Assembly (NCBI GenBank): GCA_965242565.1
Contig: OZ251457.1
Span: 2,904,653 to 2,968,652, forward strand
From: Dehalococcoidia bacterium
GTDB lineage: Bacteria; Chloroflexota; Dehalococcoidia; Bin125
Reading direction: 5' to 3'
DNA length: 64,000 bases
The notes under the pieces are model-generated. The model saw nothing but the letters and a program-made list of their open reading frames with translations. It made no database searches and was not told where the DNA came from. This document shows positions 22,938 through 47,880 of the stretch, piece after piece (within the stretch, counting starts at the first letter, position 1; each line of letters opens with the position of its first letter). The translations under genes were made by a program, and so were the position numbers.

Positions 22938-23106
22938 TCCCACTCCGTCATACCCGCCCCTACTCCTCCGTCATACCCGCGCTTGCCGCGGGTATCTCGA
23001 CGCCAACGCGCCAAACGCAACGCAACACTTCCCGTCATTCCCGCCCACAAATTCCGTCATTCCAGCGCACGCTGAGCCTGCCCCCGGCTCGAACGGGGGA
23101 ATCCAT
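22938..23106. repeat. member of a dispersed intergenic palindromic repeat family (CCGTCAYWCCCGC sub-repeats around a hairpin ACCCGCG-CTTGC-CGCGGGT)
   Basis: The motif block ccgtcatacccgcgcttgccgcgggtatctcg plus ccgtcattcccgc copies recurs at 24995, 29801, 33926, 44370 and 47580. Confidence 0.8.
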
Positions 23107-23521
23107 ACGGCGGTCGTTGGCCCAACAAAGTACCGAGCTGCCCCGCGAACGGGCGTCGGCGAGCCGCTCGGACCCTCGGCACTGCGAACAGGCTTGGGTT
23201 TGGGTTCCCGCTTTCGCGGGAACGACGGAGGGGTCAACCACCACAATCGCGGCCAAGCGCAGTGTGGCGGCCTGCGACGCGCAGCTGCGCTCGTAGGCGG
23301 CATTGTAACTCGCGGCCAGCTCCGCGAGCTCCTGCATTGCGGTTAACAGCCGCATCCGCGCCCACTCACTCCGGTGGGCCGAGACCTGGGTCGTGCTCAG
23401 CGGGTGCTCTCGGGCCGTTTCGGAGTTGAGAGAGCTTCCGCGGGATACGGAGGTGTGGTCTTTGTGCTGTGACGTTTCTCCTGCGCGGGCACTACAACGA
23501 GCAGGGCCGGTCCGGTCGGTG

Positions 23522-24853
23522 CTAGGGGGTAGGGGCTTCCGTTTGACCCTCGTGATTGCGTCCCCAGCACGCAATTTCCCCGTTGTGCGTAACCCCGCAG
23601 GTGTGATGGTCTCCAGCGCTAACAGCTGTCCACCGACCATCCGGAACCTCGGTTTGCCCATAGTCGTTGGCTCCCCAACACACGATCTCGCCAGTAGTGC
23701 GTAGACCGCACTTGTGGGCAGGGCCCAAACCTACACCAGCACTGACAGTAGTGAAGCTCCCAGCAGGAGTGCCGGTTTGCAAGATGTCCGCAGCCACCCA
23801 GCACACGAGCTCACCAGTGCCACGCACTGCACAATCGCCGCCGCCGGTACCGATCGCGGTGAAGGTCCCTATCCGCGTCCTGTTGCCTGCCCGTCCCCAA
23901 CACTCGATCTCTCCCGTTGTGCGCAGGCCGCAGGTGTCCGCCCACCCTGCACTGATTGCGGTGAAACTGCCCACTGGCGTGTCGACTTGTCCGAAGTCGG
24001 CATTGGCTCCTGCCCATCCGCCTCCCCAACACTCAATTCCGCCTGTCGCATGCAGACCGCAGGTGTGTGTATAGCCGCTCGTGACGGCCGTGAAAACACT
24101 CCCTGCTGGCGGGTTACTTTGCCCGAAGATATTGCCGCCCCAGCACACGATCCTGCCCGTATCGCGCACTCCGCAGGTGTGGAGTTGACTGGCACTGACG
24201 GCAGTGAAGATCCCGGTGGGGGCATTTGCTTGGCCCCAGTCAACGGTGAGCTCGTCTTCGATCGTGGTGTCCGTATTAGCACCCCAGCACGTGACCTCGC
24301 CTGTTCTGCGAAGGCCACAAGTGTGCCAGCGCCCAGCACTGACCGCTATGAAGCGCTGAGGCTGCGCTACGATCGTGATCTCCGTGCTGCGCAACCAGCG
24401 GCCTACGCGGGCGCCAACTGGGAAGTAGCGCGACGGCGGGGCGATGCGCTCGCCATCTGTCGGCGTGAATGCGAATTCGATCCGGCCGTCGTCCCTCAGT
24501 CGCGCGTTGATCCGGCCAATCTCCACGCCGTCTACCTCTACCGGGCTGCTGTTCAGCCAACGGTCTACCTCTGCGTCGGCGGGGAAGTAGCGGGCGCGCG
24601 GCAAGACTCGCTCTCCGCCGGCGGGCTGCCAGCCGAACTCCGTTCGGCCGTCGTCGAGTCGCTGCGCGACGATGCGGCCTGTCTGCTCGTCGTCGCTCTG
24701 CGCGTGCGCGATCCCTGCCGCCCAAGCCGCCGTCAATGCCAGCAGCGCCGCCAATCCCAGCAGCAGCGCTTTAGTTGAGGGTTTTACCCCCCCCCCCCCC
24801 GAGATCCGTCCAAACGCGCAGACGCATGACCAGTTTCCCCTCCTGCCGGCCAC
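23522..24853 (-). CDS. secreted RCC1-repeat (beta-propeller) protein with two N-terminal ~50-aa modules
   Basis: Repeated HTCG(L/V)...GxxxCWG blocks (~8 copies). A signal-peptide-like KPSTKALLLGLAALLALTAAWAAGIAHA is present. The annotated start is GTG at 24853; see the homopolymer finding. Confidence 0.8.
   Translation of the reverse strand: MAGRRGNWSCVCAFGRISGGGGVKPSTKALLLGLAALLALTAAWAAGIAHAQSDDEQTGRIVAQRLDDGRTEFGWQPAGGERVLPRARYFPADAEVDRWLNSSPVEVDGVEIGRINARLRDDGRIEFAFTPTDGERIAPPSRYFPVGARVGRWLRSTEITIVAQPQRFIAVSAGRWHTCGLRRTGEVTCWGANTDTTIEDELTVDWGQANAPTGIFTAVSASQLHTCGVRDTGRIVCWGGNIFGQSNPPAGSVFTAVTSGYTHTCGLHATGGIECWGGGWAGANADFGQVDTPVGSFTAISAGWADTCGLRTTGEIECWGRAGNRTRIGTFTAIGTGGGDCAVRGTGELVCWVAADILQTGTPAGSFTTVSAGVGLGPAHKCGLRTTGEIVCWGANDYGQTEVPDGRWTAVSAGDHHTCGVTHNGEIACWGRNHEGQTEAPTP
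24787..24800. repeat. C14 (G14 on the coding strand) homopolymeric tract inside the 5' end of the RCC1 gene
   Basis: Plus strand reads ttttaCCCCCCCCCCCCCCgagat. On the coding strand it encodes SGGGGV immediately before the signal peptide. Confidence 0.9.
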
Positions 24854-24994
24854 TCGGTCCGGCGCATGAGCGACAGGCTACGCACGCCCGAACCGTTCGG
24901 TCAAACGACTGGAGGATGTGCGCTGCCACGCCGGCTGAAGCGACGGGAGAGTGGTTGGCGCGGGATGGGGTACGGCGTTGGGTGCTGCTCGCGT

Positions 24995-25107
24995 CGAGAT
25001 ACCCGCGGCAAGCGCGGGTATGACGGAGAGGGGGGCGGACATGACGGAGAGAAGGGGTGGGGGTGGCGGAGAGGCAGGGGGCGGGAATGGCGGGGTGCGA
25101 GCGCGCT
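24995..25107. repeat. dispersed palindromic repeat family member (reverse orientation)
   Basis: Contains gagatacccgcggcaagcgcgggtatgacgg plus the gggaatgg/gacggag sub-repeats. It ends in gcgcgctctag, as does the copy at 29801. Confidence 0.75.
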
Positions 25108-30045: not shown

Positions 30046-31836
30046 CTATTCCTCAATCGGGCGCAGCACCATGTACTTCTCCAGCCATTCGACGATCTCG
30101 GGCGTGAGGTAGCGCTCCATGTTCGGGACTGCCGGATCTGGCACGCCCGCATGATTGAGAATGTAAAACGAGCAGAGCTCGGCGCTCAGCTCTCTGGGAC
30201 TGATGGAGTAGATGTTGCGGAAGATGCTGCCCCTTGGCAACACCCAGCTCCAGCCATTCGAGTGCCGCCGGAAGCCGACGAGCTTGATGAACTCCTGCGC
30301 CGCATCGGGCATGTGCTCGATCGCACGCGCGTAGATCCAACCTCTTTCCACCCACCCCAAAGACGGATGGTCAAACACGACCGGCCGGCCGGGCCTGTCT
30401 TGCTGAACGTCATAGTAGTTTTGCTGCCCATGGCACAGTTCGTGCGCGTCGAGGCTGGGACTTAGCAAGTGTTCCCCGCGCTGCTGGTAGACTCGATGTG
30501 CCGGTGATCCTTCCTCGGCATTGTGAGTGATGACAGGAAGTACTTGTAGGAGCAGGCCGCTGTCGCCGGTCGAATGGTATAGACCCCCCCCAAAGCCGCG
30601 GCCTCCGGGGACTATCTGTCTGACGATGCACAGGTGAGGCAGTACAGGAAGCAGCTGAGTTACCGCATGCTGCACATCCGGATGGTATGTCTGGGCGCAT
30701 GGCGCGTCGTCATCGAATATCCGGAATTCTGGGTTGAAGCGACGTCGATCTCGTGTTTCCGCCCAGGACAGGCACTGCCGGCCGGCGTCGATTGTTCCTG
30801 TGAGCTGGTCGTAGGTGCAAATGTTGATGCAGTCCGCCCAGAGTGTGCCGGCCGGAACAAACTCCGCGTAGTCGTCGGCGAACTGCTGAATCAGCACGGC
30901 TCCCACATTGTATTGGTTGTAAGCGCGCCAGCCGTCATCATGGAGGATGATCGTGTTCGCCATACAGCCCATGGTGGCCAGTCGTGCTTTCAGGTGATAG
31001 AGCGAGCCGCCGCCGTATTGGACCGGGAAGAGTCGGTCGTATTCGTCGGGGATCTCGGCGATGACCTGAGTTGGTTGGAGTGCGGCCCCGATCGTCGGGT
31101 CGGTTGCGGTCGGGTCGTTGAGAACCTCTCGCAGGTCAACGCAGTCGGCCCAAAGCGCGCCGGCGGGCGCGGAGCGTGCGTAGGTCTCGACGAATTGCCG
31201 ATTCTGAGCCGCCGGAACGCTAAATCGACTGTACGCGCTCCGCCGGTCATCGTTTACCACGATGATGTCGGCGATGCAGCCCGCGATGGCCAGGCGGAGA
31301 TACAGGTCGTACAGAGAGCCGCCGGTCCACCGGAATGGAAAGAACTGGTCGTGCTCGCCCGGAATGTCGGCGATGATGGGGCGGTTCTCCGGCTCGAGTC
31401 CATGGCTGGCGGGCGGCGGGTCGCCAAGCCGGCTGGTCAGGTCCGCGCAGTTTACCCAGAGTGGTCCCGACGGCACGAAACTCCCGTAGGTTTCGATGAA
31501 CGGTGAGTTTATCGCAGCGGGAACGTCGAAGTGGTTGTAGCCGTGCCACCGGCCGCCGTCGTAGAGCCAGATCGTGTTGGCGATGCAGCCGCGCACGGCG
31601 AGCTGCGCGCGGAGCTGCCGGAGAGAGCCGCCGCTCCATTGAACCGCAAAGAAATGCCCGTAGTCGTCGGGAATGGCGGCGACAAGCTCGATCGGTTGTC
31701 CCGATCTGTTGTGTGCTTCGTCGCCGGACTCTGCCTGTTCGCCGTCGTCCGCGGCCGCTGAACCAACGCCGATCAACAGCGCCGCCAGCAAGGACGCGGC
31801 CAGGATCAGCGCACGAGTCACACTCTGCACACACAT
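30046..31836 (-). CDS. secreted protein with three tandem ~95-aa repeats and a C-terminal HExxH (HELCH) putative zinc-peptidase-like domain
   Basis: Signal peptide LILAASLLAALLIGVGSAAA. Three copies of IPDxY..F(F/P)..(W/Y)xGGSL..L...LA..GC(I/M)ANTI.L.D.GRW..YN.F.VPAA.N..F.ETY...VP.G.LW..C.DL. A C-terminal HELCHGQQNYYD is also present. Confidence 0.65.
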   Translation of the reverse strand: MCVQSVTRALILAASLLAALLIGVGSAAADDGEQAESGDEAHNRSGQPIELVAAIPDDYGHFFAVQWSGGSLRQLRAQLAVRGCIANTIWLYDGGRWHGYNHFDVPAAINSPFIETYGSFVPSGPLWVNCADLTSRLGDPPPASHGLEPENRPIIADIPGEHDQFFPFRWTGGSLYDLYLRLAIAGCIADIIVVNDDRRSAYSRFSVPAAQNRQFVETYARSAPAGALWADCVDLREVLNDPTATDPTIGAALQPTQVIAEIPDEYDRLFPVQYGGGSLYHLKARLATMGCMANTIILHDDGWRAYNQYNVGAVLIQQFADDYAEFVPAGTLWADCINICTYDQLTGTIDAGRQCLSWAETRDRRRFNPEFRIFDDDAPCAQTYHPDVQHAVTQLLPVLPHLCIVRQIVPGGRGFGGGLYHSTGDSGLLLQVLPVITHNAEEGSPAHRVYQQRGEHLLSPSLDAHELCHGQQNYYDVQQDRPGRPVVFDHPSLGWVERGWIYARAIEHMPDAAQEFIKLVGFRRHSNGWSWVLPRGSIFRNIYSISPRELSAELCSFYILNHAGVPDPAVPNMERYLTPEIVEWLEKYMVLRPIEE

Positions 31837-34099: not shown

Positions 34100-36160
34100 A
34101 TGCTCGCTCGCCTCGGACTGACAGCTCTCATCGTGGCCACCGCCGCGCTCGCGCTGCTGCTGGTGAATGCCGGTACCGGGCGAGCCGAAATAATCGACGA
34201 GGGCGTCATCTCGATCGTCGCACGCTTGGCTCCCGACGATCGCATTGAGTTCGCCACGGTCATCTTTCCCGAGGAACGGGTTCTCCCCGAGCGGCGCTTC
34301 GTCGACGCCTCTGTCCGGCACGGCCGTTGGTTGCAGAGCTCGTTGATCGACTTTCGATGGGGACGCTCCGGGCGGATCGTCGCGCGGCGCCTGGCCGACG
34401 GCCGATTCACCGCGGGGTTGCGCTTGACTGGCTCTGAGGAAGTGCTCGTGCCCTACGGTTACGGCGGACGTTTCCACATGGATAACTTGGCTGGCGAGTG
34501 GCGGATCGTTGGCGTGATCGTCAGTTCCGCTATGCAGCATGCCTTTGTCGTGCGGCGTGGCGATGCAGCGATCAGCGCCGGCTACGACCACTCTTGCGCC
34601 GTCCTTGCCGACCGCGCGATCCAGTGTTGGGGCTCCAACGAGTTCGGTCAGAGCGCCGCGCCCGACGGCCAGTTTTTCTACGTCAGCGCGGGCCGCCGGC
34701 ACACCTGCGCGCTCAACATGACGCAAGAGGTTCTTTGCTGGGGATCCAACGAAGGGGGGCGCAGCGATCCGCCGGCGGGACGCTTCAACTCAATCAGCGT
34801 TGGCTATGACCACGCCTGCGGAGTGGCCTTTGGCGGCGGCCCTGTTCACTGCTGGGGCCGCAATGTCTACGGGCAGACCGACGCCCCAGCCGGGCGATTC
34901 ACCGCCGTATCCGCCGGGCATCGCCACACCTGCGCAATTGATGAAGCCAGCGCGCTGCACTGCTGGGGCGACAACCGCTGGGGCCAGTCCGACCCACCCT
35001 CCGGACGCTTCGCCGCCGTCAGCGTCGGCAACTCTCACTCCTGCGCGCTCAGCATCGATGGCATCCTCGACTGCTGGGGCTACACCGACGAGGCCCACCC
35101 CATCGAAGACCTCGACGGCAACCGCTACGAATTCCTCAGCGCCGGCGGCTGGCATGTCTGTGGCATCGCCCAGGGCGGACGCATGGATTGCGTCGGCTGG
35201 AACGGCTACGGGCACGCCGTCTCCCCGCCCGGCCGCTACGCGCTCGTCAGCGGCGCCGAAGAGCACACCTGCGCCGTCACCCTTAAAGGTGCGGTGACCT
35301 GCTGGGGACGCAACGGCTTCGGCCAGACCGACTCGCCCGGCGGCGCGTTCGCCTCGCTTGCCTCCGGCTACGACCACACCTGCGCTATTGACGAAAGCGG
35401 CGCGCTGTCCTGCTGGGGCGCCAACGGCGACGGCCAGATCGAAGCGCCCGATGGCGAATACATCGCTGTCGCCCCCGGCGACTGGCACACCTGCGCCGTC
35501 CGCGCCTCAGGCGAAATCGCCTGCTGGGGCTTCGACGGCTACGGCCAGATCGCCGACGCGCCCGCCGGCGGCGGTTACACCGACATCGTCGCCGGGCGTT
35601 CCTCCGCCTGCGCCCTGCACCAATCCGGCCGCGTCGACTGCTGGGGACGCAACGACCACGGCCAGGCCGAGCCACCCGACGCGCAGTTCACCGCAATCAG
35701 CGCGTCCTCCCTGCACGTTTGCGGCGTCGCAGCCGACGCGCAAATCCACTGCTGGGGCCGCAACCTCGAAGACCAGTCCGACGCCCCGCCCGGCCGCTAC
35801 ACCGCCGTCGCCGCTGCCGACTTCCACACCTGCGCCCTGCGCGAATCCGGCGAGATCGCCTGCTGGGGCCAACCAGACGACGACCGCACCAGTGCCCCCA
35901 CCGGGCGCTACACCGCCATCGGCGCCGGCCTCGCCCACACCTGCGCCGTGAGCGAATCCGGCCAACTCTCCTGCTGGGGCATCAACTTCTGGGCCCAGGC
36001 GGATCCGCCCGAGGGCGAGTACGCCGCAGTGGTAGCCGGCAACTCCCACAGCTGCGCCCTGCGCGCCAACGGCGAAATCACCTGCTGGGGCATCACCGTC
36101 TACGGCCAAACCGATGTGCCGGAGCGTTGGCGGGACGACGGGTCGATTAGCTGGGAGTGA
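34100..36160 (+). CDS. secreted RCC1-repeat (beta-propeller) protein
   Basis: N-terminal signal/TM segment LTALIVATAALALLLVNA. More than ten HTC(A/G)...CWG repeat blocks. The N-terminal duplicated module resembles that of the 23522..24853 protein. Confidence 0.8.
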   Translation: MLARLGLTALIVATAALALLLVNAGTGRAEIIDEGVISIVARLAPDDRIEFATVIFPEERVLPERRFVDASVRHGRWLQSSLIDFRWGRSGRIVARRLADGRFTAGLRLTGSEEVLVPYGYGGRFHMDNLAGEWRIVGVIVSSAMQHAFVVRRGDAAISAGYDHSCAVLADRAIQCWGSNEFGQSAAPDGQFFYVSAGRRHTCALNMTQEVLCWGSNEGGRSDPPAGRFNSISVGYDHACGVAFGGGPVHCWGRNVYGQTDAPAGRFTAVSAGHRHTCAIDEASALHCWGDNRWGQSDPPSGRFAAVSVGNSHSCALSIDGILDCWGYTDEAHPIEDLDGNRYEFLSAGGWHVCGIAQGGRMDCVGWNGYGHAVSPPGRYALVSGAEEHTCAVTLKGAVTCWGRNGFGQTDSPGGAFASLASGYDHTCAIDESGALSCWGANGDGQIEAPDGEYIAVAPGDWHTCAVRASGEIACWGFDGYGQIADAPAGGGYTDIVAGRSSACALHQSGRVDCWGRNDHGQAEPPDAQFTAISASSLHVCGVAADAQIHCWGRNLEDQSDAPPGRYTAVAAADFHTCALRESGEIACWGQPDDDRTSAPTGRYTAIGAGLAHTCAVSESGQLSCWGINFWAQADPPEGEYAAVVAGNSHSCALRANGEITCWGITVYGQTDVPERWRDDGSISWE

Positions 36161-44369: not shown

Positions 44370-44470
44370 CCTAACCCCCCGTCACACCCGAGCCCCCCCC
44401 CGTCAGCCCGCGCCCGCCACCGTCATACCCGCGCTTGCCGCGGGTATCTCGCCGTGTTCAGCAACCAACG
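44370..44470. repeat. dispersed palindromic repeat family member
   Basis: Reads ccgtcacacccg...ccgtcagcccgcg...ccgtcatacccgcgcttgccgcgggtatctcgccgtg. Confidence 0.75.
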
Positions 44471-44472
44471 CC

Positions 44473-45240
44473 CTACCCGTTGACATCGCAGCCCAGAAAA
44501 ACCCGCCCGCGCCGTCGGCACGCCTCCAGCACCGAAAACGTGCCGGCCGCCGGGTCCACCACCAGGTCGCCCGGATTGGTCACCGCCTCGATCAGCGCCG
44601 CCTGTAGCTCCACCGGCTTCGGGTGGACTCCCCCCTGCTTCGGGACCCGCTCGGTCCACACATCCGGGATCGTGTGAACCTTCCAGACGCCCTTGGCCTT
44701 GCGGGGCGATTTCTGTAGGACCACAAGGTGCTCCGACTTGCGGCGCGAGCGATAGCCCATGCCGATCTTGTCCTTGTCCCACGTGATCATGTCCACGGTT
44801 TCCAGCGAGGTGCCGCTGAGCCAGTCCCGGAAGCCGGTACAGAGGTGAAATTTGTCCATCCAGAGGAAGAGGTGGCCGCTGGGGATCAGGATGCGATCCA
44901 GCTCGCCGATGAACTCCGCGATGGTGTCGTCATTCATCTGCGGCAGCCCGGCGCGACCCTGCCCTCGGTTCTCGCCCTCGTTGCCGTACGCCAGGTGATC
45001 GAGCACACCGCGGTATTGCGGGTCGAAGAACGCCGCCGCGACCGCGCTCTCCGGCAATTGCGCGAGCAAATCGCGCCCATCCATCTGCAGCCGCGTATTG
45101 GGCGCCAGCTCCGCCGGCAGCGCCAACGCCGGCTGCTCAAGCGCGCGCTCACTGGAGAAGACGGATGCGGAATTCGCCTCAGCGTCGTCGAACAGCGGAG
45201 CCGAAGCTTCGCCGAGCGCGACTGTTGAACGGCGTGCCAT
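44473..45240 (-). CDS. DNA methyltransferase (N4-cytosine or N6-adenine, beta-class: motif IV before motif I), apparently orphan
   Basis: Motif IV FFDPQYR is followed later by the SAM motif I VVDPAAGTFSV. No adjacent restriction endonuclease candidate is visible. Confidence 0.7.
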   Translation of the reverse strand: MARRSTVALGEASAPLFDDAEANSASVFSSERALEQPALALPAELAPNTRLQMDGRDLLAQLPESAVAAAFFDPQYRGVLDHLAYGNEGENRGQGRAGLPQMNDDTIAEFIGELDRILIPSGHLFLWMDKFHLCTGFRDWLSGTSLETVDMITWDKDKIGMGYRSRRKSEHLVVLQKSPRKAKGVWKVHTIPDVWTERVPKQGGVHPKPVELQAALIEAVTNPGDLVVDPAAGTFSVLEACRRRGRVFLGCDVNG

Positions 45241-47579: not shown

Positions 47580-47880
47580 CCGCCATCCCCGTCCCGCTCC
47601 ATCACTCCTGCCTCGTTCCGTCACTCCCGCCCCGCGCCGTCACTCCCGCCCTACTCCGTCATACCCGCGCTTGCCGCGGGTATCTCGCCGCCAACGCCAG
47701 GGGCCCCATTCCTCCGTCACTCCCGCCCTACTCCGTCATACCCGCGCTTGCCGCGGGTATCTCGCCGCCAACGCCAGGGGCCCCATTCCTCCGTCATTCC
47801 CGCCCCCTCCTCCCGTCATTCCCGCCCCCGAGCGGGAATCAGCCCCATCCCACCGCAGCCCTCCCCCAACCCCCTTCCGT
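47580..47880. repeat. ~300-bp array of the dispersed repeat family: two tandem ~66-bp units (each ccctactccgtcatacccgcgcttgccgcgggtatctcgccgccaacgccaggggccccattcctccgtcactcccg) flanked by further CCGTCAYTCCCGC sub-repeats
   Basis: A direct tandem duplication is visible at 47640..47770. No unique spacers are present, so this is not a CRISPR array. Confidence 0.8.

Follow-up and report, generated by a model that had tools for sequence, protein, structure and literature searches.

A length-variable poly-G tract suggests phase variation of a secreted RCC1-propeller family in uncultured Dehalococcoidia

To our knowledge, contingency loci are known almost only from culturable, host-adapted pathogens and commensals. 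In the opa genes of Neisseria each copy has its own repeat, a CTCTT pentamer, in the leader-peptide coding region; the poly-G tracts of Campylobacter and the meningococcus are typically 8 to 13 nucleotides (nt) long, and the site in glpK of Mycobacterium tuberculosis is a short C run (7 C) in a GC-rich genome. In pilC, of which a proteobacterial pathogen of low-to-medium GC content has one or two copies, changes of a single G shift the frame and switch expression. Among proteins of the fold that concerns us here, BLIP-II is a secreted bacterial protein-binding propeller. The poly-G tract of Neisseria pilC reportedly lies in the signal-peptide coding region, as Jonsson et al. are said to have described in 1991. 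The approximately 11 opa genes are each independently phase variable (PMC3745409), Campylobacter possesses poly-G phasomes (PMC6321876), meningococcal hmbR and hpuAB carry poly-G tracts within open reading frames (ORFs) (PMC3786947), and phase variation of M. tuberculosis glpK leads to rapidly reversible, heritable drug tolerance (bioRxiv 10.1101/717272). Here, we describe a related arrangement in a 64,000-nt stretch of a Dehalococcoidia bacterium (contig OZ251457.1, positions 2,904,653 to 2,968,652; hereafter the window, whose own numbering is used throughout), in which a minus-strand gene for a secreted RCC1-repeat protein bears a run of 14 Gs in its 5' coding region. We consider it probable that this run is a hypermutable simple sequence repeat (SSR) that causes slipped-strand phase variation of a secreted multigene family.

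Inspection of the sequence places C14 on the plus strand, and hence G14 on the coding strand, at 24787..24800, in the context ...AGGAGGGGAAACTGGTC ATG CGT CTG CGC GTT TGG ACG GAT CTC G14 TAAAACCCTCAACTAAAGCG.... A first-pass annotation of the window had located this run at the 5' end of an RCC1-repeat gene and called it rare, and both statements hold: the encoded protein matches Pfam RCC1_2 in four stretches (E = 4e-38), and apart from the tract no homopolymer in the window exceeds 9 nt (next come C9, C8, and C7), with about 0.02 runs of at least 14 nt expected from the base composition (66.6% GC). All glycine codons of the tract are GGG, despite GGG making up only 16% of the glycine codons in the genes of the window. 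It is therefore the homopolymer DNA itself that is maintained and not a polyglycine peptide, with selection or another process acting on the DNA. The same annotation had noted that the paralogous RCC1 gene at 34100 has no tract, and this gene indeed begins with an ordinary signal peptide.

The tract is not peculiar to the window. Protein searches returned 771 family matches in ENA metagenome assemblies, many of which have N termini that run via GGGG(G) into the same signal peptide. We compared the DNA of 14 further tract-bearing loci, giving 15 with the window (loci and proteins are cited by our L and P numbers), and all 14 carried a G run of 11 to 18 nt at the homologous position. In 15 of 15 loci the Gs were on the coding strand and were followed by TAA, and across 255 kb of Dehalococcoidia DNA the homopolymers of at least 11 nt numbered 15 and were exactly these 15 tracts. 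Leaders of the window type (type 1) contained G14 in L002, L004, and L131, G12 in L003, G13 in L126 and L127, GGT followed by G11 in L128, G16 in L129, and G15 in L130, while a second leader (type 2) headed five paralogues on one complete chromosome of a metagenome-assembled genome (MAG), OZ241849.1, with G15 in L098 and L101, G18 in L099, G16 in L100, and G11 in L102. The genomes of these relatives are entered as 'MAG: Dehalococcoidia bacterium' and measure about 3.3 Mb. Selection of GTDB-genome loci through the N-terminal protein domain and not through the tract still recovered it in 5 of 28. Among the 120 best homologues, 21 had been called through a polyglycine N terminus and 18 more from inside the signal peptide (39 in total), as were the starts of the out-of-frame loci L002 and L130, so that probably about one third of the family carries this 5' module. 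Three homologues (P0121, P0122, and P0223) have the predicted ON form, MRLRVHADLGGGGVKPSTK.... A second protein search with the N-terminal 156 residues yielded mostly short fragments, with P0121 and P0122 as useful matches, and look-ups of the exact window protein found no record of either its GTG-start or its TTG-start form. Of two DNA pattern scans, that of GTDB genomes with a promoter-plus-TAAAACC pattern, which does match the window, gave no matches, and that of JGI metagenomes with G7TAAAACCCTC gave 93, all unrelated or due to chance and none in front of a family gene.

Homopolymers of this length are error prone on every sequencing platform, and measured from its best start the window gene formally contains a frameshift; both points would suit an error of sequencing or assembly, or else a decaying gene, near its loss, in which the run has expanded neutrally. 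Yet the 15 loci derive from independent samples and assemblies, some of them finished MAG chromosomes and others contigs from long reads or Illumina-style scaffolds, and because the tract recurs at the same place across these assemblies and technologies, it is real and not an assembly error. Pseudogene decay likewise fits poorly with an ORF that stays intact over 421 codons after the tract, with a confident propeller fold (mean predicted local distance difference test, pLDDT, of 86 in an AlphaFold2 model built on a 40-sequence alignment), and with purifying selection on the signal peptide that follows the tract. This explanation is largely refuted, and we regard it as very improbable.

In their sequence, SSR-mediated phase-variable (contingency) loci are characterized by a poly-G/C run of at least about 8 nt, by length polymorphism among close relatives with constant flanks, and by a position from which the repeat can alter expression. 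In length, both G14 and the G11 to G18 runs of the 14 homologous loci lie within this range. Polymorphism was evident in two sets of close relatives. L002 and L003 occupy the same syntenic locus as the window gene, with ADH upstream and a cyclase downstream, and share 94% and 90% DNA identity with the window through the flanks; here the tracts are G14 in the window, G14 in L002, and G12 in L003, even though L002 and L003 are identical over 40 nt on each side of the tract. L130 and L131 are syntenic with one another, 95% identical over 2.9 kb and identical in the flanks, and differ as G15 versus G14, which leaves L131 in frame with the ATG described below and L130 out of frame. Similar differences appear among proteins: one cluster at 90% identity unites P0026 (MGGGV) and P0224 (MGGGGV), one glycine or 3 nt apart, and in other such clusters one member has the full MRLHIRADLGGGGGKTL... 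start and another was called from within the signal peptide (P0228 and P0068). As to position, the tract follows an ATG with a Shine-Dalgarno (SD) sequence by 27 nt and precedes the signal-peptide core, and its effect on expression would depend on that ATG being the start.

The window offers several candidate starts. At 14 Gs, the only upstream start in frame with the signal peptide and the RCC1 repeats is GTG 24853..24851 (ORF 23522..24853, 443 residues), which lacks an SD, and the ATG at 24827..24825, which has AGGAGGGG 9 nt upstream, is out of frame: its translation, MRLRVWTDLGGGGGKTLN, ends after 18 sense codons at TAA 24773..24771. With 13, 16, or 10 Gs this ATG would instead read MRLRVWTDLGGGGVKPSTKALLLGLAALLALTAAWA..., and with 13 or 16 it continues as VKPSTK-ALLLGLAALLALTAAWAA-GIAHA|QS, which resembles a Sec signal peptide. 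The first-pass annotation had described both starts and the frames they open correctly in every point, and a third start, ATG 24867..24865, can be added to them, by which every frame has an upstream start codon. Downstream, TAA follows the tract directly and in the window a second TAA lies 15 nt farther, and both off frames reach a TAA within 0 to 5 codons past the tract. Further upstream, TTGACCGAACGG and TAG[C/T]CT are invariant across eight loci of the leader alignment, and the type-2 leader has a corresponding box, TTGAC[G/C]-N18-TAGCAT. TTGACC-N18-TAGCCT is kept in the eight loci and is a putative sigma-70-type promoter, but its TAGCCT hexamer matches the -10 consensus at only 3 of 6 positions, and a consensus promoter scan of the leader found no site above its threshold.

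A start in each frame (ATG 24867, GTG 24853, and ATG 24827) could mean that the leader is frame-proof, such that any tract length would yield a secreted protein with one or another N-terminal extension and the tract would tune yield only, by way of starts that differ in strength, as a volume control and not as an on/off switch. In the window these starts, one per frame, are not separated from the gene by any stop, and among the homologues P0021, P0022, P0024, and P0046 gene callers used each of the three upstream frames to read through the tract into a full-length protein. A stretch of 80 stop-free nt is unremarkable in DNA of 67% GC, however, and an alignment of eight type-1 leaders together with a table of ten loci singled out one of the three starts. 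In 10 of 10 type-1 loci ATG 24827 is present without change at a distance of exactly 27 nt from the tract, the sole length change in this interval being the G-to-T substitution inside a tract; it is the called start in P0046, P0081, P0121, and P0122, and it is preceded by a purine-rich GGAG-type motif and GAAACTG in every type-1 locus with upstream sequence (L131 lies too near its contig end). Neither of the other starts has an SD, and neither is conserved: GTG 24853 is missing in L126, L004, and L128, and ATG 24867 is a GTG in L002, L127, and L129 and is separated from the SD-preceded ATG by indels of 1 to 2 nt in L004, L128, and L129. Because such indels occur upstream of ATG 24827 in three of eight loci (+1 in L004, -1 in L128, and +2 in L129), the region must be non-coding, and the frame of an upstream ATG or GTG shifts from locus to locus. 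Type-2 leaders offer a single nearby start, an ATG located 22 nt ahead of the tract, and two of their three frames lack a usable one; the frame that runs open across the tract in L098 and L099 contains no start codon. We therefore consider the frame-proof leader unlikely. The first-pass annotation had stated that a uniform tract length, in deep sequencing and in all relatives, together with a conserved GTG start would speak against a switch; relatives instead range from G11 to G18 and three loci lack the GTG.

Evidence from the coding sequence agrees that translation passes through the tract. Variable sites immediately after it fall at codon positions 3, 1, and 2 in the ratio 11, 6, and 2, subfamilies share the K/R residues that precede the hydrophobic core, and inspection of the interval between tract and core found no start codon. 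The third-position bias, the retained K/R residues, and the lack of a later start together indicate that translation begins upstream of the tract and reads it as glycines. A start downstream of the tract at TTG 24754, the choice of the gene caller in L002, was rejected because this codon is CTG in L004, because the charged n-region would be lost, and because the codon-position bias sets in right after the tract. Judging from these sequence comparisons, ATG 24827 is by far the best candidate for the start actually used.

Relative to the conserved ATG, a phase could be assigned to 14 loci (L102 was left out, its start being ambiguous). Five were in frame (L126, L127, L129, L131, and L100), five were at +1 (the window, L002, L004, L128, and L130), and four were at -1 (L003, L098, L099, and L101), a mixture that fits independent switching of the family members and not a fixed recoding signal. 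The frame might also be restored in some messages by RNA polymerase slippage or by ribosomal frameshifting on the G run, in which case 'OFF' copies would be constitutively low expressed and the length of the DNA tract would matter little. G/C runs are the poorer slippage sites. Long homopolymers are known sites of RNA polymerase slippage, though mainly as A/T runs, which are named as the usual motifs (PMC3711429). The run of 14 to 18 nt is certainly long, and such slippage would be compatible with all data as an added layer. Against it, however, the length of the DNA itself differs between near-identical strains, and programmed recoding keeps one frame offset across orthologues, where we found 0, +1, and -1 in 5, 5, and 4 loci. 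Nor did we find a stimulatory RNA structure, as the folding of the leader RNA was no better than that of shuffled sequences (z = -0.34), which also led us to drop a riboswitch or attenuator as a reading of the leader. Correction at the level of RNA or ribosome is, in our view, quite unlikely to be what sets expression here.

We propose that expression of the family follows the reading frame through slippage of the tract. Translation would start at ATG 24827, downstream of its SD, and 27 nt later enter the tract, which would be read as GGG glycine codons within the n-region of a Sec signal peptide, and slipped-strand mispairing at replication would add or remove Gs. G13 or G16 would give the full secreted protein; at G14 the ribosome would meet TAA after 18 sense codons, and at G15 or G12 it would do so directly after the tract. 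The window copy is most likely in the OFF phase. As many paralogues in related Dehalococcoidia begin with the same module (promoter-like box, SD, ATG, 7 to 9 codons, G11 to G18, TAA(A)AC, and signal-peptide core), each cell line would express a changing subset of the RCC1-propeller family. Slipped-strand phase variation of a surface or secreted protein, as put forward in the first-pass annotation, is favored by a tract conserved in position and variable in length, by the invariant ATG and its SD, and by homologues in the ON form; the switch arrangement of that annotation stands, and the gene it treated singly belongs to a system that spans the family and has a portable 5' cassette.

Several observations weigh against this proposal. 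In the window each frame contains an upstream start, by which some protein is possible at any tract length, and an even spread over three phases is also expected if the frame did not matter. Tract lengths are known from assembly consensus sequences, one length per locus, and since the consensus length of homopolymers of 12 to 18 nt may err by one base with any technology, individual ON/OFF calls and the pair with 14 versus 15 Gs are soft. The promoter, finally, is a conserved consensus-like box that the scanner did not call.

The product of the gene is predicted to be a secreted protein-binding scaffold. By inspection, a putative Sec signal peptide consists of VKPSTK, the core ALLLGLAALLALTAAWAA, and GIAHA, with cleavage before QS, and this AQS junction is also where the ordinary signal peptides of tract-less paralogues end. 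The mature protein begins with a tandem N-terminal domain of about 50 residues per copy (GRIVA...RYFP...RWL), for which we found no Pfam match, followed by the propeller. Foldseek matched the model best to BLIP-II, UVR8, the ACR4 CRINKLY ectodomain, and RCC1 in the PDB (E = 2e-14 to 5e-12), with a probability of 1.00 to BLIP-II, UVR8, and RCC1, by which the modeled protein belongs to the RCC1-like repeat beta-propellers (RLD/BLIP-II-like). The N-terminal domain (GRIVARRLDDGRTEFGWQP...RYFP...RWLxSS; window 24340-24700, residues ~53-175) has 44 invariant columns in 20 sequences, and elsewhere it is found C terminal to RCC1 repeats or fused to other modules (P0185 with PF07510; P0158/P0159). The Gn-TAAAAC motif (window 24781-24800), conserved in DNA across subfamilies, is read in two different frames, one giving G-VKPSTK in the window type and the other, in L130/L131 and type-2 genes, GG-KTLSR or GG-KTLLL, and must therefore have outlived resets of the downstream frame. 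The ON-phase homologue P0121 (locus L126) has only 242 residues, and C8 and C9 runs lie inside or at the end of this shortened gene (L126 962-969 and 1209-1217), which could be further frameshift sites or assembly errors.

The locus is a mosaic between strains in its 5' cassette and its protein body. L001 represents the same chromosomal locus, with a DNA identity to the window of 85% through the end of ADH and of 92% over the part that starts at the signal-peptide cleavage region and extends past the gene, but in place of the window block 24705..24965 it has an unrelated, tract-less 5' end (L001 361-599) encoding MPNPIRRAVALA..., with the protein body kept at 94% amino acid identity. L002 and L003 show the reverse, since the cassette and N-domain are kept (84-95% amino acid identity) and joined to an unrelated propeller body (41-43% amino acid identity; window 23393-24361). 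These three mosaics indicate that cassette and body are exchanged by recombination among paralogues or strains. On either side of the RCC1 gene with its leader lies an arm of a perfect 38-nt inverted repeat (CTCCGTCATACCCGCGCTTGCCGCGGGTATCTCGACGC). Each arm has its own hairpin, and the repeat belongs to a family of intergenic elements resembling repetitive extragenic palindromic (REP) sequences, with tandem units of 21-23 nt, abundant in the intergenic regions of the window; the motif CCGTCATNCCCGC occurs 18 times, with 1.3 occurrences expected. This REP-like repeat may be a recombination substrate for swaps of cassettes and bodies. The portable cassette (promoter, SD, ATG, G11-18, and signal peptide) would make any RCC1-propeller body joined to it phase variable, and recombination, perhaps helped by REP-like elements, would exchange cassettes as well as propeller bodies among paralogues and strains, giving a combinatorial system in control of eukaryote-like, protein-binding secreted proteins. 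That such combinatorial variation of surface or secretome, through a portable cassette and REP-helped swapping, operates in related, probably host-associated Dehalococcoidia as the first phasome described from the Chloroflexota is a tentative suggestion, which we hold to be possible rather than probable. Coordinates of the features are collected in Table 1.

Table 1. Features of the RCC1-propeller locus in the window (strand '.', no strand assigned).
Feature	Position	Strand	Remarks
Exchangeable 5' cassette: putative promoter, SD, ATG, tract, signal peptide	24705..24965	-	Replaced in L001
Promoter-like TTGACC-N18-TAGCCT (putative)	24875..24904	-	Under the threshold of the consensus scanner
Upstream ATG	24865..24867	-	In frame at G12/G15; near the expected transcription start
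GTG, only in-frame start at G14	24851..24853	-	Without SD, not conserved; absent in L126, L004, L128
AGGAGGGG, SD-like, 9 nt before ATG 24827	24837..24844	-	Purine-rich GGAG-type motif kept in type-1 loci
ATG, presumed true start	24825..24827	-	Out of frame at G14, in frame at G10/G13/G16
G14 homopolymer, proposed slippage site	24787..24800	-	GGG glycine codons between start and signal-peptide core
TAA immediately 3' of the tract	24784..24786	-	Stop for the ATG frame at G12/G15; TAA in all 15 loci
TAA closing the ATG frame at G14	24771..24773	-	After 18 sense codons
Rest of putative signal peptide: VKPSTK, hydrophobic core ALLLGLAALLALTAAWAA, GIAHA, cleavage before QS	24701..24786	-	By inspection
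Mature protein: tandem N-terminal domain and predicted RCC1/BLIP-II-like beta-propeller	23522..24700	-	
REP-like element, upstream arm of perfect 38-nt inverted repeat	24991..25028	.	
REP-like element, downstream arm of the same 38-nt inverted repeat	22966..23003	.	
REP-like motif copies	22945-23066, 25014-25093, 29842, 33994, 44420, 47618-47825		

Other C runs of the window (30584, 38787, and 44393) were inspected, and none is at the start of a gene of the RCC1-propeller family. The C9 run at 44393-44401 (G9 on the minus strand) sits in a G-rich, REP-like intergenic stretch flanked by the 3' ends of a DNA methylase gene (44473..45240, minus strand; Pfam N6_N4_Mtase) and of a convergent ORF; since no gene begins there, it is no obvious switch. 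The C8 run at 30584-30591 (G8 on the minus strand) is inside a 596-residue minus-strand ORF (30046..31836) without Pfam match, in a stretch of lower GC content (63%). The chance matches of the metagenome scan included an unrelated low-GC repeat, TTAGTATTACAAATTAGTGCCAGAATTATT-G7-TAAAACCCTCATTTA-C(6-12)-ACTAAAAATATTGGGGGG, present in many copies with a C tract of varying length (L010, L011, L014, L025, L028, L030, L031, and others, on WLWD01/WLWI01 contigs).

Our analysis places a contingency-locus design in uncultured, GC-rich Dehalococcoidia, on a large secreted family of RCC1/BLIP-II-like propellers, and its interest is increased by its extent across a family, by the uncultured phylum, and by its coupling to cassette shuffling. 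If switching is true, it would imply (i) a fluctuating, probably biotic, selective pressure, exerted by a host, a grazer, or phage, (ii) that the propeller family marks the interface with that pressure, and (iii) that frameshifts and truncated starts of gene callers in this family, seen in about a third of the 120 best homologues, should count as phase states and not as pseudogenes. A search of the literature on phase variation in Chloroflexota/Chloroflexi, sponge symbionts, or the RCC1-propeller family found no report.

By analogy, the arrangement most likely works like classical contingency loci, with a known mechanism in a new phylum and a new protein family. It resembles pilC in having a G run inside the signal-peptide coding region of a secreted or surface protein, and differs in belonging to a family of many paralogues, in a Chloroflexota genome of 67% GC, with tracts of up to 18 nt, known here from sequence alone. 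With opa it would share a multigene surface-protein family in which a mixed ON/OFF repertoire is normal and copies recombine, although opa genes encode outer-membrane beta-barrels with proven switching, and the present family propellers headed by a homopolymer. Intragenic poly-G contingency loci whose state differs between isolates connect it to Campylobacter and to hmbR/hpuAB; unlike the Dehalococcoidia studied here, Campylobacter and the meningococcus are host-restricted pathogens, and their loci encode mostly surface-modification enzymes or receptors without a shared 5' cassette. The short run of M. tuberculosis glpK, by contrast, belongs to one metabolic gene and not to a secreted family. 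At the level of the protein, the predicted fold and the Pfam RCC1_2 match are shared with BLIP-II and RCC1-like propellers (PDB 1jtd_B and 3qi0; UVR8; RCC1 1a12), from which the window protein differs by a sequence identity of 15-24% and by its extra tandem N-terminal domain.

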